Positions 611 to 34,271 of a DNA stretch of 64,000 nucleotides are shown here, piece after piece. A program made the position numbers and the translations under genes. Each line of letters opens with the position of its first letter. Within the stretch, counting starts at the first letter, position 1. Source of the DNA: a virus (lineage: Duplodnaviria > Caudoviricetes); IMG/VR virus record IMGVR_UViG_3300032216_000646, positions 31,751-95,750 of that record. The stretch is one strand, 5' to 3'. The notes beneath the pieces were generated by a model that did not search any database, was not told where the DNA came from, and was given only the letters and a program-made list of their open reading frames with translations.

Positions 611-638
611 AAAAACCCCCCTACAGGAGGGGGGTTTT
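611..638. terminator. Bidirectional rho-independent terminator
   Basis: aaaacccccct-acagg-aggggggtttt GC stem with A/T tracts on both sides. Confidence 0.8.
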
Positions 639-813
639 AGTTTGAGTAGGTGGGTTGCGTTTTACCACCAATGCGTCGCCACCAGATTCTCTAGCGCTTA
701 CTCGCATACTTGCCGTTAGGTTATCAGCCCAGTTGATTAGACCCGACAATGCTTTCTCCCTGTTGGCACAGAGATTCAGCCATACTCCAGCCTCTCCGTC
801 GAGAGACTGTTTG

Positions 814-1103
814 TGGACTAGACGGGATTCGAACCCGTGTCCTAACATTTCTTCTAAATACTTCTACATGCTTAGGCTTTACCAGCCACGGTCAAACAAA
901 GGATAAAACAGATTATTGTTCTATTTATTTGAAACCTAACTGCCCACCTAGAACTAGTGCTTTGTTAGGGGCGCTCGCAGTTTTTAGGCTGCTAGTGCGT
1001 ATGCGTTTTGAGTTGCATTTATTTTTTTACTCGATTCAAGAGTCACGAGCGTCTCTGCATGCTTCTATTCAGTTGTCAATGCCAGTCGATACCAAACTAG
1101 CCC
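814..1103 (-). ncRNA. ssrA: tmRNA (about 290 nt), tag peptide (A)ATQNAYALAA
   Basis: 5' GGGCTAG..GGTATCGAC; 3' GGAC-ACGGG-TTCGAAT-CCCGT-CTAGTCC-A; acceptor stem with G3:U70 and A73; PK1 (agag/ctct, ctcg/cgag); AT-rich resume context then GCA..GCC TAA at 1016-984. Confidence 0.95.
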
Positions 1104-1214: not shown

Positions 1215-1754
1215 TTAGGAAATGTCAATAACCTTTGGCTTTTTTTCTTCAGGAAGGTCTTTCTCGAAGGTAACAGTCAGCATACCATCTTTGACGGTTG
1301 CACCACTAATCTTCCAGAACTCTGCAACAGCCAGTTCCAACTTGAAGTCACGGGCAGCGATGCCTTGGTAGACAATCTCACCTTCAGCCTTGCCGACCTT
1401 CTTGCCTTCAATGGTGATTACAGAATCCTGTAGGACAACACTCAACTCTTCCTTGGAGAAGCCAGCCACTGCTACGTTGAGCAGGTTGACGTCATCCTTC
1501 AAAGCGACAATGTCGTATGGAGGATAGGAAGGCTTGTTGTTGGTAACTTCTCTGAGAGTTTCAAGAAGTGGAGACCAGCCAATGGATAGGCGGTCTAGGC
1601 GGGGGAACAAGTCAGCAATAGTTACTGGCTTTGGAGGGACAGGCTTTTGCCATTTGTCCTTCTTGTTGTCCCACGGGTCATGTGGGTTTGGCTCATACGG
1701 GTTTGGATAAGGTTTCTTCCAACGGTCGTATGGGTCTAGTGGGTTGTGGTTCAT
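1215..1754 (-). CDS. Hsp20/IbpA small heat-shock protein with Pro-rich N-terminal extension
   Basis: SYPPYDI..VAVAGF..YQGIAARDF..KDGMLTV alpha-crystallin motifs; AAGGAG RBS before ATG at 1754. Confidence 0.9.
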   Translation of the reverse strand: MNHNPLDPYDRWKKPYPNPYEPNPHDPWDNKKDKWQKPVPPKPVTIADLFPRLDRLSIGWSPLLETLREVTNNKPSYPPYDIVALKDDVNLLNVAVAGFSKEELSVVLQDSVITIEGKKVGKAEGEIVYQGIAARDFKLELAVAEFWKISGATVKDGMLTVTFEKDLPEEKKPKVIDIS

Positions 1755-1844
1755 TGTTGTCTCCTTAGACGACAACTGTGCCTTGGTACATAACTGCCCG
1801 TAGCACAGTATTTTTTATGACACCCGATTGGCGTGTCTAAGAAG

Positions 1845-1855: not shown

Positions 1856-2134
1856 TTACTTGCGGAACTGGCGTCCTAGCGCACGGTGAATAGCGACACC
1901 ACCAACGATTGCGCCAATACCCGCACCAATCGCCATAGCAGTGTGGTTACCAGTTACATTCAAGGCTTCAACTGACTTCATCATGTTAGAGGTCGTGCCA
2001 TCAATGTTGTTGATGTGCCAAGACATGTCTGGGACGCTCTTGAAAGTAACAGGGCTTAGTTTGTCGCCAATGCCAGCACCGACTAAAGCGCCTATGCCAG
2101 ATGCTCCAGCAACGAGTTGTTTCTTAGTAGCCAT
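1856..2134 (-). CDS. Gly-zipper small protein with C-terminal LGRQF motif
   Basis: Two GxxxG hydrophobic segments; ends ALGRQFRK. Confidence 0.7.
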   Translation of the reverse strand: MATKKQLVAGASGIGALVGAGIGDKLSPVTFKSVPDMSWHINNIDGTTSNMMKSVEALNVTGNHTAMAIGAGIGAIVGGVAIHRALGRQFRK

Positions 2135-2180
2135 GATTACCTCACTTATTAGTCTCTATTTAGGATAAAGCAAAATGTCA

Positions 2181-2384
2181 CTAATCGAATAGTGAAACTT
2201 GCCCATTGTTGTGGCGTTCCTTGATGTGCAAGTTTAGGTTCTTGTCGTTCCAAAAGTTTGCAGGGCATGCAGGGCATGACAGGCTAGGGTAGATAGTTTT
2301 AGTGCCATACCCACTATCGTGCTGTTCTTCTTCAGGTAAATCGCCACCATGCTGGTCTTTACCAAACTGTTCTTTGCTAATCAT
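2181..2384 (-). CDS. C2H2 zinc-finger small protein with N-terminal QF motif
   Basis: MISKEQFG; CPAC-x12-HIKERH. Confidence 0.7.
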   Translation of the reverse strand: MISKEQFGKDQHGGDLPEEEQHDSGYGTKTIYPSLSCPACPANFWNDKNLNLHIKERHNNGQVSLFD

Positions 2385-2386
2385 GC

Positions 2387-2710
2387 CTACTTCTTTCCAA
2401 AGTCTTTAGGAAGACCTAATGTTCTTGCCCATTTGAAACCTTTGTTACCGTAAGACGATTTCATAAGGTCTGGCGCAGGGATGCCTAACTCGGTGGCTTT
2501 CTGCACTGCAGTGTGATACATACCTGTAGCCACACCTTTACGTTGGTGTTCTTCATTCACACCCACGTGTATAGCCCCCTCGTTATCCCAAATCAATGCG
2601 CCAATCGCCCCATCCTCATTTGGATGGATAGCGTGGATGTTGTGGTCACCTGCTGGGTCTACAAAGTATTTATAGGTAACCCCTTCAAAAGCGGCTTTAC
2701 TTCTAGTCAT
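2387..2710 (-). CDS. GNAT acetyltransferase
   Basis: VGVNEEHQRKGVATGMY acetyl-CoA-binding motif A. Confidence 0.75.
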   Translation of the reverse strand: MTRSKAAFEGVTYKYFVDPAGDHNIHAIHPNEDGAIGALIWDNEGAIHVGVNEEHQRKGVATGMYHTAVQKATELGIPAPDLMKSSYGNKGFKWARTLGLPKDFGKK

Positions 2711-3033
2711 TTAAACACCACAGGTATGTGGGTCATACCAAGTTCTCTAGCAGCCATAACTCGATGATGACCCTCAGTAAGTAGAGTTTCACCGCTATCA
2801 AGTTTCGTTGCCTCTATTGGGTTTTTCAACCCTTGTGCAGCAATGTTTGCTTTTAGGTTTTCTACATAGTCGTCATCGTGAGCATCAAAGTTGGCGCAAG
2901 ATTCGGCATCAACATGTTTCATGCGTATTGGGTTTGAGTGGTCGCCATCATCATAATCAGAAGGAATAAACTCATTGACTTCAGACATAGGGACATCTAC
3001 AGAGCCGTGGAAGTCTGCTTTATTTGCACCCAT
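2707..3033 (-). CDS. Stand-alone ParB/Srx N-terminal domain protein
   Basis: LKANIAAQGLKNPI..LTEGHHRVMAARELGMTHIPV. Confidence 0.85.
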   Translation of the reverse strand: MGANKADFHGSVDVPMSEVNEFIPSDYDDGDHSNPIRMKHVDAESCANFDAHDDDYVENLKANIAAQGLKNPIEATKLDSGETLLTEGHHRVMAARELGMTHIPVVFK

Positions 3034-3788
3034 TAGTAAAGACTGCTCACATGTTGTTGTAGACGCTCATGCTCATGCTCTAGTTCGCCATGAGTGATGT
3101 CGTTGACGTGTTCGCCCATCTCGTCGATAGCACCGTGTGCTTCACCCATGTGGTGAGTGTGCCAATGAGACCCTTCTTCTAGGTTGTCTGCTTCATCAAG
3201 ATTGTATTTGATTTTGTCGTGTAGACGCATAACGTGAGCAGTAACCTCATCGTCTAAACCCGCAGCATGTGCTTTAGCAATGAACTCGTTCACATGTTCT
3301 TTTAGTTTATGAATAGTAGGTGGAGCGATTGGGTCCCAACGAGCATGGCGGTATTTGTCATCTGAAATGATGTGGTCATCAAACTTTTCGTTGCCTTCCC
3401 ACTCACCGCCAACAGCCCTAGCCCACTTGTCCCCTGTTTTAGTGCGCATAGTTGAATGCACAGGTGCAGGTATAGAAGGGATGTCTTCATGAAGTTCACC
3501 AGCAAACTTGTATAACTTAGTGGCTAACCCTTGACGACGCATCTCAGGGTGAGTCTCGATGTGTTGGATGCGACCCTTTTCATCCAGACCCATAGTGCCA
3601 ACAAAGTTGTCGTCAGCATCGTGCATAGTAAAGTTGTGCGCAGAAGTTCCAAAACCCATACGACCGTGATGGTATTGGATAGAGTGCGTAGCCCCATTAT
3701 CGTCAGTGACCTTCCAAGCCATAAGCATCTTATGGTCAGGATGTTCACCCGCTTGAATCTTAGTAGGGTCGTTTTCTACAACAGCCAT
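3033..3788 (-). CDS. GNAT acetyltransferase with His-rich helical C-terminal domain
   Basis: IETHPEMRRQGLATKLY; PAPVHSTMRT..GDKWARAVGG. Confidence 0.8.
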   Translation of the reverse strand: MAVVENDPTKIQAGEHPDHKMLMAWKVTDDNGATHSIQYHHGRMGFGTSAHNFTMHDADDNFVGTMGLDEKGRIQHIETHPEMRRQGLATKLYKFAGELHEDIPSIPAPVHSTMRTKTGDKWARAVGGEWEGNEKFDDHIISDDKYRHARWDPIAPPTIHKLKEHVNEFIAKAHAAGLDDEVTAHVMRLHDKIKYNLDEADNLEEGSHWHTHHMGEAHGAIDEMGEHVNDITHGELEHEHERLQQHVSSLY

Positions 3789-4333
3789 TACCTTGCTCCT
3801 TCAAACTCTTGGAAGTTACCTGGGTGGACTATCGATGGATGGTAGTCGTAATCTTCTTCGTGAAGTCTAGTGTCCATGTGTAGAGGTGCGCCTACACCCT
3901 TTTGCTTATTAGACGCTTCACTTCCACGGGTATGCACCATCACTGGAATGTGAGTAACTCCTGCTTGCAGAGCCGCCGCAAGACGGTGGTTACCTTCAGT
4001 AAGAACACCCCAACGTAGATTGTGGTCATAGTTTAGATGAACAGGTTCTCTGAGTCCGTCTATACCGTGAGTAGATAAGTCGTTAGCGATGTTGTTGATG
4101 TTCTCTTTGCTGTTAGCGTAGCCTTGAGCGCCCGTACGGTCATACTCTTTATAGCGCATTAGTTGATGCACAGGGACGAGAGCAACATAACGATTCCACT
4201 TATACCCTGGCTCATCACCTTTTAGGCTGCCGTTATCTGCGATAGCGTGAGTTCGCCATCCGCCGTTTTCATGAGTAGCAAGACCTGGACCCGTATAGGT
4301 AGGAACAGATGCAAACTGTTTACCAATGTCCAT
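3788..4333 (-). CDS. ParB/Srx domain protein
   Basis: GLREPVHL..LTEGNHRLAAALQAGVTHIPV; leader MDIGKQF. Confidence 0.8.
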   Translation of the reverse strand: MDIGKQFASVPTYTGPGLATHENGGWRTHAIADNGSLKGDEPGYKWNRYVALVPVHQLMRYKEYDRTGAQGYANSKENINNIANDLSTHGIDGLREPVHLNYDHNLRWGVLTEGNHRLAAALQAGVTHIPVMVHTRGSEASNKQKGVGAPLHMDTRLHEEDYDYHPSIVHPGNFQEFEGAR

Positions 4334-4893
4334 TAGAACCTCTTATCTAGTTGAAGACCGATTGCACCAGCAGCACACTCGTCACATTGACCGTTATAGC
4401 CCTTTTGGTGTTCAGTCAAGTAAATACCATGCCTGTCCATCCAGTGACCATCACGGTAATGGCTTTGAGGAACATCTGCAACGATTTTGGTGACCCTAAA
4501 GCCATCAGTGCTACTTACTTCGTTTTCTGGACTTGGAAACTTTTCTGCTTTAGAAACAGGCTCTACTTGGTATGCGTAGGCTCGTTTTTCTTTTGTAGGT
4601 CGCACTTGCTCTGCTCGAACGGCATACGACATTGCATGCCTAGCATTTTCAGAAGATACGTATCCAGTGACTGGAACTACCCATGCTCTAGGTTGGTGCG
4701 CTCTAGGGTCATCTTTTGCATCGCCTAAACCGTAGACACCACCGTGGCTACCAGATTGAACCAAACTGTCGCCATTTGGTTTGATGAGGTCTCCAACATT
4801 TAGTCTTTGATTAGTGCCGTGTAGGTAGATAGTGTTGCCGTCACTAGGTTCGTGGTTTCTACCTGCAAAGAAGTCGGTAGTATTCCTAGTCAT
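4333..4893 (-). CDS. Arr-like ADP-ribosyltransferase
   Basis: YLHGTNQRLNVGDLIKP..AMSYA..YAYQVEP..SSTDGFRVTKIV resembles the Arr pattern HGT..L.VGDL..YxVEP. Confidence 0.7.
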   Translation of the reverse strand: MTRNTTDFFAGRNHEPSDGNTIYLHGTNQRLNVGDLIKPNGDSLVQSGSHGGVYGLGDAKDDPRAHQPRAWVVPVTGYVSSENARHAMSYAVRAEQVRPTKEKRAYAYQVEPVSKAEKFPSPENEVSSTDGFRVTKIVADVPQSHYRDGHWMDRHGIYLTEHQKGYNGQCDECAAGAIGLQLDKRF

Positions 4894-5359
4894 TTACTTC
4901 CCTAATCTGTCGGGTTTTAGGATGCTTCACAAAAACTTCGGCTTCATCAGGGCTACCAATAGCCACAATGTCAGACCTAGGCACTTCCCACTCATACGTC
5001 TTCTCAGGTGGGTTAGATTGGAATGCTTTCCAAGATTTCCAGTTTGGATGCAACGAAACATTAGTGACGCCCTTCTTAGGCATGCCAGTGCGTCTAACTG
5101 TCACTGTGTCGCCTAAGCCAGAGTGGTGAAGAATGTGCTGCACCATTTCGTGGTGTTCTTCTGCTGGCGGTGAATCTTTTTCCATTACATCTTTGATGTA
5201 TTCAATAGGATACCTGTGACTGCCGACGGTTGTGGAGTTACCGTAAACAAAATGCTCAAGTGCTGGTTCGCTGTCCATCATGCCAGCGTGATAGTCATAG
5301 TTCTCTTCAGAAAGATGTTTGAAGGCAGCAGCATCAAACTCTGATTTACGTCCAGCCAT
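4886..5359 (-). CDS. ADP-ribosyltransferase-like protein (R-S-E type)
   Basis: TVRRTG..NVSL..YEWEVPRSDIVAIG..DEAEVFV; start ATG 5359 overlaps the upstream TAA. Confidence 0.55.
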   Translation of the reverse strand: MAGRKSEFDAAAFKHLSEENYDYHAGMMDSEPALEHFVYGNSTTVGSHRYPIEYIKDVMEKDSPPAEEHHEMVQHILHHSGLGDTVTVRRTGMPKKGVTNVSLHPNWKSWKAFQSNPPEKTYEWEVPRSDIVAIGSPDEAEVFVKHPKTRQIREVND

Positions 5360-5910
5360 TAGATGACACCTGAACCTGAACATGTATGACACTTTTTGAC
5401 CTGAGACATAGTGAACTCTTCATCGTAGTTCTCTAGGCGATGCCAGTGACGGTCTAAGTCTTTATTGTCTACGCCATTACCGCCACACATTGGGCAGTGA
5501 CCTGCACGAGTGTCATACTTCTCAGGCAAACCATTGATGCCACCCTTCCATGGAATCTCCATGTTCGGGTCAATGTCGTGTGCGGCAGCGATACGGTGGT
5601 GTCCGCCCATAACCCATGCTTTGTCAGGGGTAGGGAATACAATCGCTACAGGCGCACGAACACCATGCTTTTTGATGCTGTCGTATAGGGAGTCGTTATC
5701 TTGACCGTAACCACCAAAACTGGTGCTTTTAGATGCGCCAAGTTTCTGAGGCATGATGTCTTTATCTTGGTCAACGTTGTCAGCAAACTCGACGTTAGGG
5801 TTACCCATAAGGTCACCTACACGGATAGTGCCTCTAGCGTTAGTCATTTGCTCTTGATACTTCTCAAAGTGTGGTTGGAACTGTCGTCCCATGTTCTCTG
5901 GGCTAGTCAT
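5359..5910 (-). CDS. ParB/Srx domain plus C-terminal CxxCxGxG zinc ribbon
   Basis: LYDSIKKHGVRAPV..GGHHRIAAA; CPMCGGNG..CHTCSGSG. Confidence 0.8.
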   Translation of the reverse strand: MTSPENMGRQFQPHFEKYQEQMTNARGTIRVGDLMGNPNVEFADNVDQDKDIMPQKLGASKSTSFGGYGQDNDSLYDSIKKHGVRAPVAIVFPTPDKAWVMGGHHRIAAAHDIDPNMEIPWKGGINGLPEKYDTRAGHCPMCGGNGVDNKDLDRHWHRLENYDEEFTMSQVKKCHTCSGSGVI

Positions 5911-6335
5911 TAGTTATCCTTCTGTAGAGGCAACATCATTTCCCACATAGCACCACGCATAGCGTAAGTGGAGTTTGAAACTTTGTGAGTTGGCGGCTGA
6001 ATCGTGCCGCCTTCAGATTTGACTACCGCTCTCGCCCAAGAGTTTCCAGATGGGGTGCGAGAACTAGCATGCTTAGGGGCAGGGATAGATGGGTCTTTTT
6101 CGCTGGCGGATTTAGCGTAGTTGTAAAGAGCGGTTGCGATTCCTTGGCGACGAACTTCTGGACGAGTTTCAACCTGCACGATAGTTCCATGCTCATTCAA
6201 GTTCAAATGACCTAAAAGGTTTCCACGCTGGTCTCTCATCTGAAAGGCGTGATGAGGGTTGCCATCTCTGTCTACGTGAGGTAGGTAAGTGATTGTGTGA
6301 GCAAACTGCTGACCAATGTTTTCTGGGCTAGTCAT
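5910..6335 (-). CDS. GNAT acetyltransferase
   Basis: VETRPEVRRQGIATALY..PAPKHASSRTPSGNSWARAV; paralog of 3033..3788. Confidence 0.8.
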   Translation of the reverse strand: MTSPENIGQQFAHTITYLPHVDRDGNPHHAFQMRDQRGNLLGHLNLNEHGTIVQVETRPEVRRQGIATALYNYAKSASEKDPSIPAPKHASSRTPSGNSWARAVVKSEGGTIQPPTHKVSNSTYAMRGAMWEMMLPLQKDN

Positions 6336-6751
6336 TATGCGTTCATTTCTTTAGGTGGGTGATACCAGTCTCGTTCTTCAGAAGTTACCTCACCAGTTTC
6401 TGGGTGAATACTGGTCTTGTGAACCTTGTATAGGTTGACTTTTGCTCCCGCTTTCAGGGTTACCTCAGACTCTGCGTCGTTGTGACCTTCATCGTAGACT
6501 TTCAACTTGCTAAGTCTGTCAGCGTCAGTCTCAACTTGGCTACCATCGATTTCTGCCTCAAGAACATGCCCAACTTCAGATGGGTATGCTCGATTAGCGC
6601 CTAGGCTAAACTTTTCAGCAACATCACGGTCAGTAGTCCAGTGAGCGCCTAATCCTTGATTAGATGGGCTATCTAGCCCCATGATGGCGTGACCGTTCAT
6701 TCCACGGTAAACCTTGATGAACTGCTGCCCTACTAGGTGTTCGTTAACCAT
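6335..6751 (-). CDS. ADP-ribosyltransferase (R-S/T-ExE type)
   Basis: KVYRGM..GAHWTTDRDVAEKF..VLEAEI..AESEVTL. Confidence 0.7.
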   Translation of the reverse strand: MVNEHLVGQQFIKVYRGMNGHAIMGLDSPSNQGLGAHWTTDRDVAEKFSLGANRAYPSEVGHVLEAEIDGSQVETDADRLSKLKVYDEGHNDAESEVTLKAGAKVNLYKVHKTSIHPETGEVTSEERDWYHPPKEMNA

Positions 6752-7235
6752 TGCACTTCCCACATTCGTATGAATACCCCTCGTGACTATCTACAGAGCC
6801 GTCAGGGTTTACTGCATTGTGCTTTACAGAGTAATGACTATAGATTAGGTCTTCAGGCTTCTCTTTTTCACCAGGTAAGGTTTTAGTTCCCATAAAATAC
6901 CGTTTGCTACCTTCGAAAGGCTCATCTGACCAAGTTTCTTCATTTTTCATAGGAGTGGACTTCACTACTGTAAAACCTTTTCCACTAGTAACTACTTGCC
7001 CTTTGGAAACGACAGAAAGAGTGTCATCGTTTTCAATCGGCTTTACTTCATGAACGTAACCATCTTCACCAGCGTAGCCACGTGCCACTTCTGGGTGGGG
7101 AGTAGCAAACGCTTCAGGTTCATCTCCTGAACCATGTAGTTGGTGTGGGTTGACTGTGCCTCCTAGTTTGATGAAGTTAGGAGAGCCGTGAAAAAGACGC
7201 TCAAACTGTTGCCCAATGTCTTCTGGTCTAGCCAT
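6744..7235 (-). CDS. Arr-like ADP-ribosyltransferase
   Basis: LFHGSP..AFATPHPEVARGYA..YVHEVKP..SGKGFTVV. Confidence 0.65.
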   Translation of the reverse strand: MARPEDIGQQFERLFHGSPNFIKLGGTVNPHQLHGSGDEPEAFATPHPEVARGYAGEDGYVHEVKPIENDDTLSVVSKGQVVTSGKGFTVVKSTPMKNEETWSDEPFEGSKRYFMGTKTLPGEKEKPEDLIYSHYSVKHNAVNPDGSVDSHEGYSYECGKCNG

Positions 7236-7614
7236 TTGGACAGTCCTCCTCTTTATGCCAATGTAACTCGCCCTCGGCAGGCACGTGACCTACACGGGTA
7301 ATAAGATGCGGTGGAACTCGTGTTTCAGAATAAGAAGCGTCATCTTCAAGCCATGGGTCTTCATACATGTGTTGAACGGGGATGTGAACTTGATAAATGT
7401 CATGGTTAGGGTAGCCCGTGCCTTTGCCCGTCACGTGGTTTACCGAGTCAACACCGTTGTAGACGTAAACACCACGAGGAACGTCGCCTTCTTCATGCAC
7501 ATAAGTGCCTTTAGGCGTAGGAAACAGCCCAGTTTTCTCAATAGAGTCTCTATGCTTCTTTGGGGCGAAGTGGAAGCCCTGACCGTTATAGAAGTCAACA
7601 TTATTTCTAGTCAA
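7228..7614 (-). CDS. ADP-ribosyltransferase-like protein (H-Y class, Tpt1/KptA-like fold)
   Basis: FHFAPKKHRDSIEKTGLFP..GVYVY..DIYQV..VPPHLITRV; TTG start at 7614 gives leader MTRNNVDFYNG. Confidence 0.6.
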   Translation of the reverse strand: MTRNNVDFYNGQGFHFAPKKHRDSIEKTGLFPTPKGTYVHEEGDVPRGVYVYNGVDSVNHVTGKGTGYPNHDIYQVHIPVQHMYEDPWLEDDASYSETRVPPHLITRVGHVPAEGELHWHKEEDCPNG

Positions 7615-8215
7615 TGTAGTTGATTCCAATCGGCATCTGGGGGAAATGCTTGCGGGCAATCGCCAAGGTAGTCAAACCACCAGTAACTACAGGGTTTCCG
7701 TCGTTCCAGCGGACGTCTATTTTTGGCTGTTCAACGCCCGACGTGTATTTTTCGATTAAATCTCGGCTGCGCTTAGTTACGTTGTTGCGGTAGTGGGTTT
7801 CGAGCATCGAGGCTACTTGGGGCGCACCTAACCGTTTGACGGCGTAACGGGAAGCGTCAGGGTTTGACGGGATGATGTGGGTAGAAATGATGTGTGTGTA
7901 AGGTAACTCTTGCGGACGATAGGCGTTATGTGGGGGTGTGGTCTCTTGACGGCTCTTACCAGTCACATCTTTAGTTATCGTGTGGACGTGTTTATCCATG
8001 TAAGTGTATTTAGACACTTGATTTACAGGATGCGGGTGGTATCCAGCGAACTCTTGGGTAGAACTACTGTTACGAGTCTTAGGACTCAAGTAACCGCAGG
8101 TAGGACATTCGAAATGGTAAGACACCTGTGTAGGTAAACCACGGTGATTGTATGGACACTGTGTAGGTGTGTCACGACGAGGGCGACCAACTTGTCCCAT
8201 AAAACCACCTGCCAT
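7607..8215 (-). CDS. Hypothetical protein; N-terminal Cys/His zinc motif, possible degenerate ParB-like C-terminus
   Basis: CPYNH..CPTC; PKIDV..VVTGGLTTLAIA. Confidence 0.55.
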   Translation of the reverse strand: MAGGFMGQVGRPRRDTPTQCPYNHRGLPTQVSYHFECPTCGYLSPKTRNSSSTQEFAGYHPHPVNQVSKYTYMDKHVHTITKDVTGKSRQETTPPHNAYRPQELPYTHIISTHIIPSNPDASRYAVKRLGAPQVASMLETHYRNNVTKRSRDLIEKYTSGVEQPKIDVRWNDGNPVVTGGLTTLAIARKHFPQMPIGINYID

Positions 8216-21798: not shown

Positions 21799-21867
21799 GA
21801 CTATCCGTAAGCCCACTTCGCTGCCAAAAAAATGTCAGTGGGGTGTGCTAAGAAATCGAGGGCAATA

Positions 21868-22998
21868 ATGATTCAGCAAAAACTAAATGATTACATTCAA
21901 AGTTGGCTACCAAAAGCCGACCTACTACCCATCACCAAAAAGAACTACGAGTCTGTCCTACGCATCCACGTCCTGCCACGCATGGGCGAGAGAGTCATAG
22001 CAGACATCCGTAGAGCCGATGTCCGTCAACTGCTGGACGAACTACGTGACGTAGGCATCTCCAGTTCTATCCGCTCCCAAGCCAAAGCCTCCCTAGGCTC
22101 TGCACTGCAGGCACTGGTAGACCGTGACGAACTAGAGTCCAACCCGACGCACAAGATTCGCATCAAGAAGTTAGACAGCCAAGACCTACGCAACGTCCTA
22201 GACCCAGAGGACTTCAAGACCATCCGTCAGAACCTCCGTAATGACGTCGCCGCACTTTTTGCAGACTTCCTTGTTCTTTCGGGTTGCCGATTCGGAGAGG
22301 CATCCGAACTAAGACTCAAAGATGCCAACTTCAAAACCAACGAAATCTACATTCAAAGACGAGTCAGTGACCTAGGTGGAAACCATAACAATGGTTCAAG
22401 ATTCAGGGTTATCGAGGCTACAAAGTCAGGTCGTAGCCGTGCTGTCGTAGTCACAAAGCCACTTATGGACGCAATCAAAGCCCATTCACAAGCCCACGGA
22501 CTAGCACAAAACGACCTATTGTTCCCTGTGAACTTGTTTGCTAAAGACGATACCGTGGAAAGCATGTCACGAGACACGGACACCGCAAAGACATTCGTCA
22601 AGAACAAAAGGTTATACACCCACGGAACGCAATACGCTTACGTGCATGGTCTTTGCAGGTGTGAGCAATGCCGAGATGCGATGCGAAAGTATCGAGCATC
22701 ACAACGCCTACCAAAAGTCAACCAGCGTCCTGCCACCAACACGACAGGACACTTACCTCGTGACACATGGAGACTAATCTGGCTAGAGGCAATCGGTAAG
22801 TCCAATGTGGAATGGAGTCCACGCACCCACGACCTTCGTCATGCCAACGCTACGCTGTTACTAAAAAATGGCGTGGATGTGAACGAAGTCAAGGAGCGTC
22901 TAGGACACTCATCCATCAAGACGACAGAACGATACCTACATCGTCTGCGTCACCAACGGTCAAAAGCAGCGGAAGCAGTGGCTGACTTTTTGGAGTGA
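21868..22998 (+). CDS. Tyrosine recombinase with inserted zinc motif
   Basis: SGCRFGE, TKSG, HDLRH, LGHSS, TERY catalytic set. Confidence 0.9.
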   Translation: MIQQKLNDYIQSWLPKADLLPITKKNYESVLRIHVLPRMGERVIADIRRADVRQLLDELRDVGISSSIRSQAKASLGSALQALVDRDELESNPTHKIRIKKLDSQDLRNVLDPEDFKTIRQNLRNDVAALFADFLVLSGCRFGEASELRLKDANFKTNEIYIQRRVSDLGGNHNNGSRFRVIEATKSGRSRAVVVTKPLMDAIKAHSQAHGLAQNDLLFPVNLFAKDDTVESMSRDTDTAKTFVKNKRLYTHGTQYAYVHGLCRCEQCRDAMRKYRASQRLPKVNQRPATNTTGHLPRDTWRLIWLEAIGKSNVEWSPRTHDLRHANATLLLKNGVDVNEVKERLGHSSIKTTERYLHRLRHQRSKAAEAVADFLE

Positions 22999-26231: not shown

Positions 26232-27746
26232 TTACTTATCTTCGATAGCATTCTTGATAATGTAAGTGGTTTGCTCTTCCGTCATACCCTGTTGCTGACG
26301 TTCTTGCTCCTTGATTGCCTGCACTCTGTCACCAAAGATTGCGCTCAAAACACCCTGACCAGCATTGCGTTGTGCAGTGATTTGAATGAACTCTTTATTC
26401 TCATCAAGAGCCTTGATTTTCTCCAACATCTTGAAGTATCTGTCCATCTCTTGAGACAAGTTAGGGTCAGCATAACCACCGTTCAACTCCTCTGAGAACC
26501 GCATGAATGCTACTCTCTGGGCTTGCATCTCAAGCAACGTAGTGTTCAACGCACGTAGTTGAGCAGGGGTCTCGACCTTGACTGGCAGGTTGAATGCACA
26601 AGTGTTTGCAGGCTTGAATGCAGGGCAGTTAGCAGCAATAAAACAGGTGTCACACTGCCTCAAAGAGGTGGTGTTGGACTGCACCATAGGCACTTGCTTT
26701 AGAACATCACGACCATCTTGATTCTCTACAACAGTGGTCATCTCGTAACCAAAAACAGGCATAGAAATGACCTCAGAAGGGTCTCTTTGAACTACTTCTT
26801 GTCTTTCGACTTTCCGCATTTCAGAACCGTTGTTATCAGAAGAACCTATACCTGTTTCCATCAAACCAGTGTATAAAGTATCGTCACTGTTGTCAGATAG
26901 TTCTGACTGGGTTGGCTTCCATGGATGGTTGTTATTGCTGGGTGTGTCTTTACTCACATTTGCCTCTAACTGTAAATACGACCAGATTGCCAGCCGTGTT
27001 GCTTCCAAAGTATCATCCGCAACAAACTTCGCAAAGTCCAAGTCTGCACGTTCAACAATGTTCTTGTAGCGGGGTCTAGCCTGCTCTTTCATCCGTTTTG
27101 GGTAACGAACTAACTTGCCACCATCCCACACAATGGTTTCTCCTCGACGCATCGGTGATAGCCAAGAAAGAGTAGATGTAGTAGCAAAAGGAATCTGTCT
27201 TAGATTGTCGGGTTTTGCACAAGCCAGAGCGTGGAAGCGTACTGGGTGCTGACGGATAAGGTTACGGACAACGCCAGCCAAGGATGTAACAGACTCAATA
27301 GCCTCATAAGGGATGGCAATGTTCTGGAACTGAGTTGCCCACTTCTGCAATACAAGAGTGTTGTATGACTCATGCCAAACAATCCACATCTTTGGGTCGT
27401 TCTCGAAAGAGGCACGGTTTGCCACAATCTTAGGCAACCCCCAAACTTGTGAGTCAAACTCTACCCAACCTTCGATGCGGTCATAGTTTTCAGCAATGAA
27501 CTCCTCATACTCGGCTGCGTAATCTTCTAACTCGGATGGACTTAGGTTAGCCTTATCTGCTTGAGTTGCGCCAGAATCAACAAAAACCTTCATTTGGGGA
27601 AGAAAATGCTCCGCAATCAGGTATTTCTTAGTAGTAGGTAACCCACGCTTACGGAGACCCCAATAGTTGAGCATTACGTGACGGACACCCTCACGCTCCA
27701 ACAGGGTTCTATTGGACGGAATCTCTACTCCACCAAAGATAATCAT
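26232..27746 (-). CDS. TGT/DpdA-like TIM barrel fused to a Cys-rich C-terminal domain
   Basis: VFVDSGA, EFD, VWH, RFHALA, STLSW..RRGE; CDTC..CPAF..C. Confidence 0.55.
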   Translation of the reverse strand: MIIFGGVEIPSNRTLLEREGVRHVMLNYWGLRKRGLPTTKKYLIAEHFLPQMKVFVDSGATQADKANLSPSELEDYAAEYEEFIAENYDRIEGWVEFDSQVWGLPKIVANRASFENDPKMWIVWHESYNTLVLQKWATQFQNIAIPYEAIESVTSLAGVVRNLIRQHPVRFHALACAKPDNLRQIPFATTSTLSWLSPMRRGETIVWDGGKLVRYPKRMKEQARPRYKNIVERADLDFAKFVADDTLEATRLAIWSYLQLEANVSKDTPSNNNHPWKPTQSELSDNSDDTLYTGLMETGIGSSDNNGSEMRKVERQEVVQRDPSEVISMPVFGYEMTTVVENQDGRDVLKQVPMVQSNTTSLRQCDTCFIAANCPAFKPANTCAFNLPVKVETPAQLRALNTTLLEMQAQRVAFMRFSEELNGGYADPNLSQEMDRYFKMLEKIKALDENKEFIQITAQRNAGQGVLSAIFGDRVQAIKEQERQQQGMTEEQTTYIIKNAIEDK

Positions 27747-32425: not shown

Positions 32426-32833
32426 TTAGTCACTTCCTAAACTGTTTCTACTGCTTCCTGCATACCCTGCTGGGCTGCCTGAATACCACGACACACGTGG
32501 TTCTGTGTAAACACGGTCAATACTGACGACATCGTCAATACCAGGCTGTGTTCTTTCTCCCCAACCAAACCTTGGCGGGAACAACTGAATCTGAGGGATT
32601 GGTGGGCGAACCATTTGCTGCAACTGCGCACCTGGAATGGTAGCAACCATGAGTGCTTGTTGGGTTAGTCGTTCTTCATTTGATGCAAACGGACCCGAAT
32701 ACGCCCAGCGTGCGGGAATCCTGTCGGAGGGTCTAGCGGATACGCCAGCGTTCTGCCAAGGTTTTGTGTGGTCATACTGTCCGTCAGTCTCATTGACTCC
32801 GTGACTAAAACCTAGTTTTGCAATCTCAGCCAT
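32426..32833 (-). CDS. Hypothetical protein (possibly virion-associated)
   Basis: ORF in a coupled operon. Confidence 0.65.
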   Translation of the reverse strand: MAEIAKLGFSHGVNETDGQYDHTKPWQNAGVSARPSDRIPARWAYSGPFASNEERLTQQALMVATIPGAQLQQMVRPPIPQIQLFPPRFGWGERTQPGIDDVVSIDRVYTEPRVSWYSGSPAGYAGSSRNSLGSD

Positions 32834-33738
32834 TACCGCTCCTGTGCTGGTAGTGGTGGAAGACCGTGGTTAGTCGGGTCCCAATGTGGGTTTTCTTCTA
32901 TCCATCTACGAACCTTATTGGCTTCACCTGTAGCAGAGGCTTGTGAACGCACGTTTGAAGTTGTTTTATTGCGCTTTTGGTAAGACCAGTGCATTGCTTG
33001 GTAACCACCAAACGTTGTGTCTGGGTGGATTAGACCGTTAGAGATTGAATGGGCGTATGCGTGTTGATAAGCGTTTTGCACAAAGTCATAAACGTGTGCT
33101 TTTTTCATGTGGTCGTTAGCAACGTCGGCATTCAAGTCAAGTCTGTCCATGCCTGCATCGTAAGCGTGGAAATCAACAGGGAAACGAGTTGACTTTCCTG
33201 CAGTTGCTAAGGCGTGCGCAAAGTCTGGTGTTTTACGGTAAATACGAACAGTAGGTTTACCTTCGCTTGCAAAAACATCTGGACCTACAGGGTCGCTAAT
33301 CTCGTTGTCACGGATACGAAGTGCTTTACTGATTACACCATTAGTTGTGCTTTCTAACGGAGTGCCAGAGATACCCACGTTACGGCGCATTTCTGACAAA
33401 ACATCTTTGTCAGCGCCTTCTTTACCCATTTCTACCATTTTGTGGATTTGACGAGTTTGAACATCATCGAAGTCAAGAGTTTGAAAACTACCCAAAACGT
33501 TTTGTGACCAAGAGTTTTTAGGGGATAGGACGCTAAGTTGACCAGCACCTGCGAATGCGGGATTGGCAGCGCTAAACTGTTGCCCAATGTGAGTGGCGTA
33601 TTGATGCCCTTTTGGATACCACGAGTTACCTGTTTGCACATCAACAGGCTCAAACTTTGCAGTTCTAGCCAACAAGTTGCCCACTAAAGCGTGGTGGTTT
33701 TCTTCATTTAGTTCGAAGTTTCCAGGTGTCAGTGCCAT
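32833..33738 (-). CDS. DUF7178-like protein (possible HhH glycosylase-like fold)
   Basis: SWY..LSPKNSWSQN..PVDFHAYD..YQAMHW. Confidence 0.5.
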   Translation of the reverse strand: MALTPGNFELNEENHHALVGNLLARTAKFEPVDVQTGNSWYPKGHQYATHIGQQFSAANPAFAGAGQLSVLSPKNSWSQNVLGSFQTLDFDDVQTRQIHKMVEMGKEGADKDVLSEMRRNVGISGTPLESTTNGVISKALRIRDNEISDPVGPDVFASEGKPTVRIYRKTPDFAHALATAGKSTRFPVDFHAYDAGMDRLDLNADVANDHMKKAHVYDFVQNAYQHAYAHSISNGLIHPDTTFGGYQAMHWSYQKRNKTTSNVRSQASATGEANKVRRWIEENPHWDPTNHGLPPLPAQER

Positions 33739-34271
33739 TAGTGACTCCAAGCAGGCTTGAGGTACGCAAGGGCATTTGCACGTTGCACGTTGATAGTTGT
33801 TGCACTACCAGTAGTGTTGGCTTTGCCGTCGTTTACAAGATGTGGAGCAGGGATTAGACGAATGTCTGGTGCGGCTTTAGGTGTCTTCCAAACATAAACG
33901 CCATTGTCAAGTACTTGCTTGGCTTTGCCTTGACGTTTCAAACCCATTTCAGCGTTGAAATCAGGAGACCAGTAATACATAGATGGTTCAATACGCTCGC
34001 CCTTATGGACACCACGCTGGTAGGACTTCTGTCCTAAACGGTTTTTGATTGAATCAAGTAGGCGGTCATCACGACGGCTACGAATAGTGCCTAGGTATCC
34101 GTCAGGATACTCGGCTGAAGGAACTCTTCCAGTTCCAATACGAATGGCGTCAAGTTCACCACGTGCGACAGGCATTCCCTGTCCGCCCATGTTGTTATAG
34201 CCCTGCAGACCGTTGCCACCAAGTGACTGCCAGTTCTGCGACGGGCTAAAGTTATTGACAGAGCCAGTCAT
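33738..34271 (-). CDS. Hypothetical actinophage protein
   Basis: PSAEYPDGYLGTIRSRRDDRLL..SYQRGVHKGERI. Confidence 0.7.
   Translation of the reverse strand: MTGSVNNFSPSQNWQSLGGNGLQGYNNMGGQGMPVARGELDAIRIGTGRVPSAEYPDGYLGTIRSRRDDRLLDSIKNRLGQKSYQRGVHKGERIEPSMYYWSPDFNAEMGLKRQGKAKQVLDNGVYVWKTPKAAPDIRLIPAPHLVNDGKANTTGSATTINVQRANALAYLKPAWSH

Follow-up and report, generated by a model that had tools for sequence, protein, structure and literature searches.

The gene content of a 64,000-nucleotide stretch of viral DNA, called the window throughout, was analysed. The window covers bases 31751-95750 of the IMG/VR record IMGVR_UViG_3300032216_000646, a virus genome of 95,750 bp that carries direct terminal repeats and is rated complete. 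Fourteen small open reading frames (ORFs), all on the minus strand and tightly coupled, occupy window positions 1856-8215 and make up an array that consists mostly of predicted mini-enzymes with ADP-ribosyltransferase (ART), GNAT acetyltransferase and ParB/Srx folds. Ten of these genes, of differing folds, begin with one of two peptides of 7-11 residues, referred to as tags; an earlier note on this DNA made no mention of tags common to unrelated folds. Three gene starts were corrected on the basis of homologue lengths and tags, giving 4886..5359, 6335..6751 and 7228..7614, the last with a TTG start. The corrected starts give overlaps of 1, 4 or 8 nucleotides at ten junctions and short gaps at the last three, which bears out the description in the earlier note of about 14 same-strand genes with small overlaps. 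The overlapping junctions read TAATG, or ATGNNTAG/ATGNNTAA with the upstream stop lying inside the first tag codons. No convincing minus-strand terminator was found within the array, the sole candidate (2723-2739) being weak, and at the array's start a 106-bp divergent junction separates it from plus-strand genes for a MoxR-type ATPase and a VWA protein. The array would form one co-oriented, translationally coupled operon of single-domain mini-enzymes. PADLOC returned a single match, that of a ParB domain to a methyltransferase model.

The class A tag has the pattern M-(T/G)-(R/A)-(N/S)-(N/K/T)-x-(D/A)-F and is found on 2387, 2707, 4333 and 7228, with a variant on 4886 (genes are named by their lower coordinate). 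The class B tag, x-(E/D)-(N/D)-(I/M/V)-G-(Q/R/K)-Q-F, is found on 5359, 5910, 6335 and 6744, and 3788 has a shortened form of it. In both classes the last residue, Phe, is invariant. The members of the array are listed below with their lengths in amino acids (aa); identities are to homologues in L006, a related contig described later.

7607..8215, minus strand: first array gene, 202 aa, start probably at the second Met, untagged; N-terminal zinc-ribbon-like stretch CxxxxxH...CxxC; 88% identical in L006
7228..7614, minus strand: ART-fold protein, putatively of the H-Y clade (Tpt1/DarT/PARP-like), 128 aa, TTG start, class A tag
6744..7235, minus strand: Arr-like ART (H-G-S/T type), 163 aa, class B tag, C-terminal CxxC
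6335..6751, minus strand: minimal R-S-ExE ART, 138 aa, class B tag
5910..6335, minus strand: mini-GNAT acetyltransferase, 141 aa, class B tag
5359..5910, minus strand: ParB/Srx domain with C-terminal double CxxCxGxG zinc finger, 183 aa, class B tag
4886..5359, minus strand: probable R-S-ExE ART with N-terminal helical extension, 157 aa, class A-like tag
4333..4893, minus strand: Arr-like ART, 186 aa, class A tag, C-terminal CxxC
3788..4333, minus strand: ParB/Srx domain protein, 181 aa, short class B tag; match to phrog_3147
3033..3788, minus strand: GNAT with His-rich helical C-terminal extension, 251 aa, untagged; 71% identical homologue in L006
2707..3033, minus strand: short ParB/Srx domain, 108 aa, class A tag
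2387..2710, minus strand: mini-GNAT, 107 aa, class A tag; 83% identical in L006
2181..2384, minus strand: C2H2-like zinc-finger protein, 67 aa, weak class B-like start; 93% in L006
1856..2134, minus strand: glycine-zipper membrane protein (Pfam Gly-zipper), 92 aa; C-terminal class B motif LGRQF (1865-1879)

Tag peptides on unrelated proteins

Both tags were searched for in all six reading frames of the complete genome. There were seven copies of the class B core against 0.2 expected, and six of these seven lie inside the array; of ten loose class A matches, four are in the array, each of these at the start of a gene. The single class B copy beyond the array is IGQQF (33574-33588, minus strand), about 55 residues into a 305-aa ORF (32833-33750). 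Either tag class can occur on one fold family. The same arrangement was seen in other virus contigs. A codon-neutral DNA pattern for the peptide MGRNNADF was found in 26 IMG/VR contigs, where 1-2 were expected by a rough estimate, and in 23 of them it starts an ORF of at least 50 aa, often with several such ORFs following one another. Contig L011 has a run of six genes with class B tags, while in L014 five genes with class A tags are followed by a gene for the small heat-shock protein HSP20. In bacterial genomes the tag pattern gave 13 matches scattered over many phyla, about the estimated chance number, so that no host can be inferred from it. A full-text literature search for the tag string returned no paper. 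The tags may resemble sites of Prp/L27-type cleavage; the phage has no Prp gene. Another recurrent start, M-P-x-D-R-A-N-D or M-A-P-R-R-R-E-N-D, was seen on small proteins at L020:3532-6503, L032:2581-3348 and L034:3588-5769; these contigs also hold MGRNNADF-tagged genes, and the start may represent a third tag class in this phage group.

The codons of the tags were compared in order to see at which level they are conserved. The class B copies of the window differ at synonymous sites. Among 50 non-redundant class A tags from many contigs, the Arg residue is encoded by AGA in 50% and by CGT in 33%. The tags are therefore judged to be conserved and selected at the level of the peptide. It is improbable that they are instead the translated by-product of a standard junction DNA, in which a stop/start overlap and an A-rich unstructured initiation region would serve translational coupling and provide homology for swaps. 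Such a by-product would fit the standardised junctions (TAATG, or ATGNNTAG, where the tag codons take in the upstream stop), the nucleotide bias of the class A tag (GCA in 87% against a background of 27%, and AAT in 80% at the first Asn), about 20 nucleotides common to the starts of 5359 and 5910, and one natural deletion that breaks inside tag-coding DNA. It accounts poorly, however, for an Arg residue that is kept across the AGA and CGT codon families, for the Gly, Gln, Phe and Asp codons that vary among tag copies, for a terminal Phe that is invariant over two tag classes with different DNA, and for the presence of the class B motif also at C-termini.

Predicted folds of the array proteins

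The folds proposed in the earlier note were searched for with profile comparisons and Foldseek, and ART, GNAT and ParB folds were all recovered, a few members weakly. Five ARTs had been claimed; profile or model matches to ART folds uphold four of them (4333, 6744, 6335 and, with weaker profile scores, 7228), and 4886 is a probable member only. Both 4333 and 6744 belong to a single family with about 20 members. Its profile (A5) matched the rifampin ART Arr (2hw2/9iaf) with an E-value of 2.3e-5 and ARR-2 with 3.5e-4, the His being invariant. Arr was the best PDB match for 4333, and Arr-ms matches were found in five of seven 4333-family members, although the single-sequence Pfam Arr-ms scores of 4333 and 6744 were below the gathering cut-off. 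Leads from atlas structures for 6744 were Arr-ms, DUF3990 and Tse2. The motifs y-H-G-T...GD..P and Y.VEP are shared between this family and the Arr rifampin ARTs (PDB 2hw2, 9iaf, 9iba); the family differs from Arr in that many of its members are of 74-120 aa, tagged and placed in phage arrays.

For 6335 and 7228 the residue numbers count from the tag-stripped proteins. In the 6335 family, R5, W27-T/S and E83xE85 are invariant in 11 sequences. The AlphaFold2 (AF2) model of 6335 had a predicted local distance difference test (pLDDT) score of 79 and a predicted template modelling (pTM) score of 0.76. Of the first 24 Foldseek matches listed for this model, 23 were ART folds (highest probability 0.99, E 4e-3), and VIA gave Z scores of 8.0 (root-mean-square deviation 3.9, 111 aligned) and 7.3, nearly all of the 50 listed rows being ART folds. 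The family profile of 7228 (A3) matched Tpt1, DarT1 or PARP1 in all 33 of its PDB matches, with a best E-value of 0.009; H7 is invariant in this family, which also has an SIExxGL motif, and its atlas leads were PARP and Tox-ART-HYD1. In 4886 the stretches VTVRRTG, TNVSL and ExEVFV, corresponding to RR, S and ExE, are invariant in seven homologues. Its AF2 model was weak (pLDDT 68, Foldseek E of 0.2 or above, VIA Z of 3.9 or below), and the matches of this weak model were nearly all C3/iota/VIP2-type ARTs. A profile comparison of 4886 with 6335 revealed no relation. Single-sequence PDB searches with 6335 and 4333 gave nothing useful, and a tblastn search of cultured phages with the mini-ARTs gave no match. 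The five candidates would transfer ADP-ribose from nicotinamide adenine dinucleotide (NAD+).

The three GNATs of the earlier note were confirmed. Their Pfam scores reach the gathering cut-offs: 23.2 bits for 2387 and 23.7 bits for 5910 against 20.7 for Acetyltransf_1, and 24.2 bits for 3033 against 23.6 for Acetyltransf_10. The Pfam matches cover the central part of the profile only, and two of the members have just 107 and 141 aa, where a complete GNAT fold takes about 150 aa or more. The three proteins are mutually paralogous (5e-27 to 2e-6, with 5e-27 for the pair 5910/3033), and each has the acetyl coenzyme A (acetyl-CoA) loop Q/R-x-x-G-x-A, which reads QRKGVA, RRQGLA and RRQGIA. All 26 PDB matches of the family profile were GNATs, with a best E-value of 1e-5.

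The three ParB/Srx genes were likewise recovered, as ParB-like families of PHROG matched 2707, 3788 and 5359 at 2e-10, 4e-9 and 4e-4, and all three proteins contain a G(H/N)HR motif (GHHR, GNHR and GHHR). Their scores for Pfam ParB_N were below the cut-off. The ParB profile matched two chains of SbnI as its sole PDB matches (E 0.012); SbnI is a small-molecule kinase of the ParB/Srx fold. No helix-turn-helix (HTH) family of Pfam was matched by 2707, 3788 or 5359, and the PHROG matches span the ParB N-terminal domain only. The absence of an HTH match together with the G(H/N)HR motifs argues that these are enzymatic ParB/Srx domains and not partition proteins, as predicted from the sequences. A role as chromosome or plasmid partition ParB was rejected for proteins of only 108-183 aa that lack an HTH and match only the N-terminal domain. 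A fourth ParB that the earlier note had seen in 7607 was not sustained, the ParB-like reading of its C-terminus having an hhalign probability of 5%. As for the zinc ribbons said to be appended to some members, the one on 5359 stands, with a clear double CxxCxGxG (Pfam DnaJ_CXXCXGXG weak, E 0.03), and no other clear one was found.

NAD+ would serve the five proteins of the ART fold, acetyl-CoA the three GNATs and a nucleoside triphosphate (NTP) the three ParB/Srx proteins, and these enzymes would covalently modify macromolecules of the host or possibly of the phage. It is very improbable that they act on small molecules instead, as a set of detoxifying enzymes that the phage would carry against antiphage compounds made in actinobacterial communities. 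Rifampin is the known substrate of the Arr family, among the PDB matches of the GNAT profile are mycothiol synthase and acetyltransferases for aminoglycosides, streptothricin and nourseothricin, and the ParB profile led to the SbnI chains alone; these similarities are however limited to the cofactor-binding cores, and the array proteins are much smaller than resistance enzymes. Moreover, ARTs of the R-S-ExE and Tpt1/DarT types usually have proteins or nucleic acids as their targets.

Exchange of genes between relatives

The array was compared with related loci, and the claim of the earlier note that it is shuffleable was substantiated. It is not invariant among relatives, as whole genes are swapped, added and deleted. 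The contig L006 (94.9 kb) has the same flanks, with MoxR and VWA on one side and HSP20 on the other, and a different gene set at the same site. Its shared proteins are about 85% identical on the whole. Seven array members are in common, six at 71-93% identity and the glycine-zipper protein at 36%. L006 lacks 7228, 6744, 6335, 5910, 5359, 4886 and 2707 and has eight other genes, two of which encode mini-ARTs (95 and 98 aa). One GNAT of L006 bears the tag that 2707 bears in the window. In another contig, L003, a 77%-identical homologue of 6335 stands between two unrelated genes. One array protein of L006 that is absent from the window (L006:9079-9663, 194 aa) has an H-E-T-A-H (HExxH-type) motif and is possibly a metallopeptidase like those of the polyvalent proteins discussed below.

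Contigs from four pond, lake and freshwater sequencing runs were aligned to the window, and whole-gene replacements were found. The gene 2707 is exchanged for 634 other letters in contigs of X2 and X5, with a joint from 2711 to 3031. A block from 5910 to 6744 is exchanged for 1210 letters (5912 to 7241). The gene 4886 is deleted (4872 to 5356), and the 17 intervening letters read as another tag variant. A joint from 5361 to 7607 was also seen and matches L006. The breakpoints in these contigs lie at gene boundaries, one of them inside a tag. Local family models revealed that the mixes of the three ART clades, GNAT and ParB differ beside HSP20 in at least 11 other loci, the E-values of these models being circular for their training members; HSP20 is thereby a constant neighbour of variable arrays. 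A megablast search of a phage collection with the array gave no match, the search for related loci with 3033 alone gave none, and that with the 4333 family gave one weak locus only. The genes behave as exchangeable cassettes, relatives keeping the flanks and some members and changing others at standardised junctions.

The features downstream of the array are as follows.

1215..1775, minus strand: HSP20 small heat-shock protein (Pfam HSP20 4e-14), conserved neighbour downstream of the array
813-1103, minus strand: phage-encoded transfer-messenger RNA (tmRNA) with tag peptide ATQNAYALAA, directly downstream of HSP20
612..638, minus strand: strong terminator-like hairpin after the tmRNA

The hairpin is likely the end of a leftward transcription unit that contains the array. 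The nearest cultured-phage relatives of the HSP20 protein are from pelagiphages and cyanophages, not from actinophages.

The window also encodes baseplate and tail proteins, a DNA polymerase, a helicase and a ribonucleotide reductase of a tailed phage, and the genes for the major capsid protein, portal and terminase sit just beyond it. The capsid protein is 59-61% identical to those of the Streptomyces phages LuckySocke, Alone3, BRock and GiJojo, and searches with the array proteins recovered actinophage relatives only. The host is probably an actinobacterium, because both the capsid protein and the array proteins have actinophage relatives. The sequencing runs that contain parts of the stretch are labelled aquatic, pond, lake and freshwater, and no RNA run is listed among them.

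Possible role of the tags and comparison with known systems

The array is tentatively read as a toolkit of exchangeable modules, effectors that would use NAD+, acetyl-CoA or NTP, would serve host takeover or anti-defence and would share a docking tag, most likely for loading into the virion. This reading is quite possible but falls a little short of probable. The tag would be a common docking peptide that gives unrelated cargo one handling step, and this step would most likely be virion loading and co-injection with the DNA, as the T4 internal proteins are handled by means of a capsid-targeting sequence. The internal proteins found in T-even phages are diverse, counter host defence and have the capsid-targeting sequence alone in common; their cargo includes an ART (Alt) and defence inhibitors (PMC3012670). 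The loci of IPI, IPII, IPIII and Alt resemble the array in that a short N-terminal peptide stands on unrelated proteins and in that the locus is polymorphic between relatives. The array differs in having two tag classes, with sequences unrelated to those of T4, in a phage that is related to BRock and not to T4. Its tag often abuts the catalytic core, and its motif is also found at C-termini.

Several observations weigh against loading into the virion. No prohead protease of the S78, ClpP, S49 or Prp families was found in the complete genome, where the controls worked, and S77 gave a single sub-threshold match of 12.7 bits, which makes a clip-off step of the T4 type unlikely. The tags of several mini-ARTs directly adjoin the catalytic HG(T/S) strand, no spacer lying between, which also argues against their removal. 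The class B motif is C-terminal in glycine-zipper proteins (1856 of the window and its homologues in L006 and L039), and it is C-terminal or internal in a few other proteins. About 10 kb separate the array from the terminase gene downstream of it, and the tmRNA, the strong terminator and other genes lie in between. Since the array starts at a divergent junction with a non-structural block (MoxR-type ATPase and VWA), early expression without packaging is equally compatible with the map. The closest cultured relatives are the BRock-like Streptomyces phages; in one of them, LuckySocke, tRNA genes and no such array lie upstream of the head genes.

These points bear on a further explanation, in which the enzymes would be early-made cytoplasmic effectors and the tag would dock to a partner that is not part of the virion, such as a chaperone (e.g. 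HSP20), a hub protein of the host, or a factor of degradation or regulation that sets when the enzymes are active. This explanation is rather unlikely, yet much of the layout agrees with it: the array begins at the divergent junction and has its own terminator downstream, the motif is N-terminal, internal and C-terminal like a short linear binding motif, and the prohead protease is missing from the matches in the complete genome. HSP20 flanks arrays in the loci counted above, but it may be merely a conserved neighbour.

The earlier note had also linked the array to polyvalent proteins, and this link gained support from a fused relative. The family of Bxz1 gp83 and IkeLoa gp77 in cluster C mycobacteriophages consists of 575-aa proteins in which an ART like 6335 is fused to a ParB domain like 3788. 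In IkeLoa gp77 a YRG/HWTTD ART domain covers residues 108-182 and the ParB domain residues 223-315, and phrog_3147 matches both 6335 and 3788. The fused gene lies about 5 kb upstream of the portal gene in these mycobacteriophages. Because of this relative the array is tied to the polyvalent-protein theme; it may be a split polyvalent protein, as the earlier note proposed, or the reverse may hold. Packaging and injection have been predicted for polyvalent proteins with ART and ParB domains (Iyer, Burroughs, Anand, de Souza, Aravind 2017; PMC5512222). Like the array, they have ART, ParB/Srx-type, acetyltransferase-type and zinc-ribbon modules and combine disparate biochemical activities for the first phase of infection. 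In contrast to them, the array has one domain per gene, and each gene of 107-251 codons has its own start, stop and tag, without fusion to MuF, portal or peptidase. Its modules are whole genes, and close relatives were shown to exchange them. The defining feature of the polyvalent class, two or more effector domains per polypeptide, is absent from the array, fused forms being found in other phages only. A search for longer fused forms of 6335 gave none, which is weak evidence. A role of the tag as a spacer between domains was unsupported for the gp83/gp77 family, as IkeLoa gp77 has no tag motif.

A wider proposal is doubtful. The tags may be a portable address code for loading or handling without a protease, and the tag junction might double as a recombination handle, so that freshwater actinophage-like viruses would possess an integrase-free cassette exchanger for an injected arsenal. 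If this holds, the array would be a natural plug-in system in which a tag of 8-11 residues and a standard junction make any small enzyme an exchangeable phage cargo. The capsid-targeting principle of T4 and the polyvalent-protein idea would then extend to an unrelated phage group with no detected prohead protease. Dozens of minimal ART, GNAT and ParB/Srx enzymes, some below 100 residues, would become available, their targets probably marking nodes of host defence or takeover, and the tags would offer a simple sequence handle for mining effectors in metagenomes.

Two other genes of the window may be recorded. A 504-aa queuine tRNA-ribosyltransferase-like protein is encoded at 26232-27746 on the minus strand (phrog_887, E 5e-59) and could point to 7-deazaguanine modification of the phage DNA. 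An integrase-like gene lies at 21832-22998 on the plus strand (phrog_1, E 5e-48), and with this gene in a record that has terminal repeats, a temperate lifestyle is possible.

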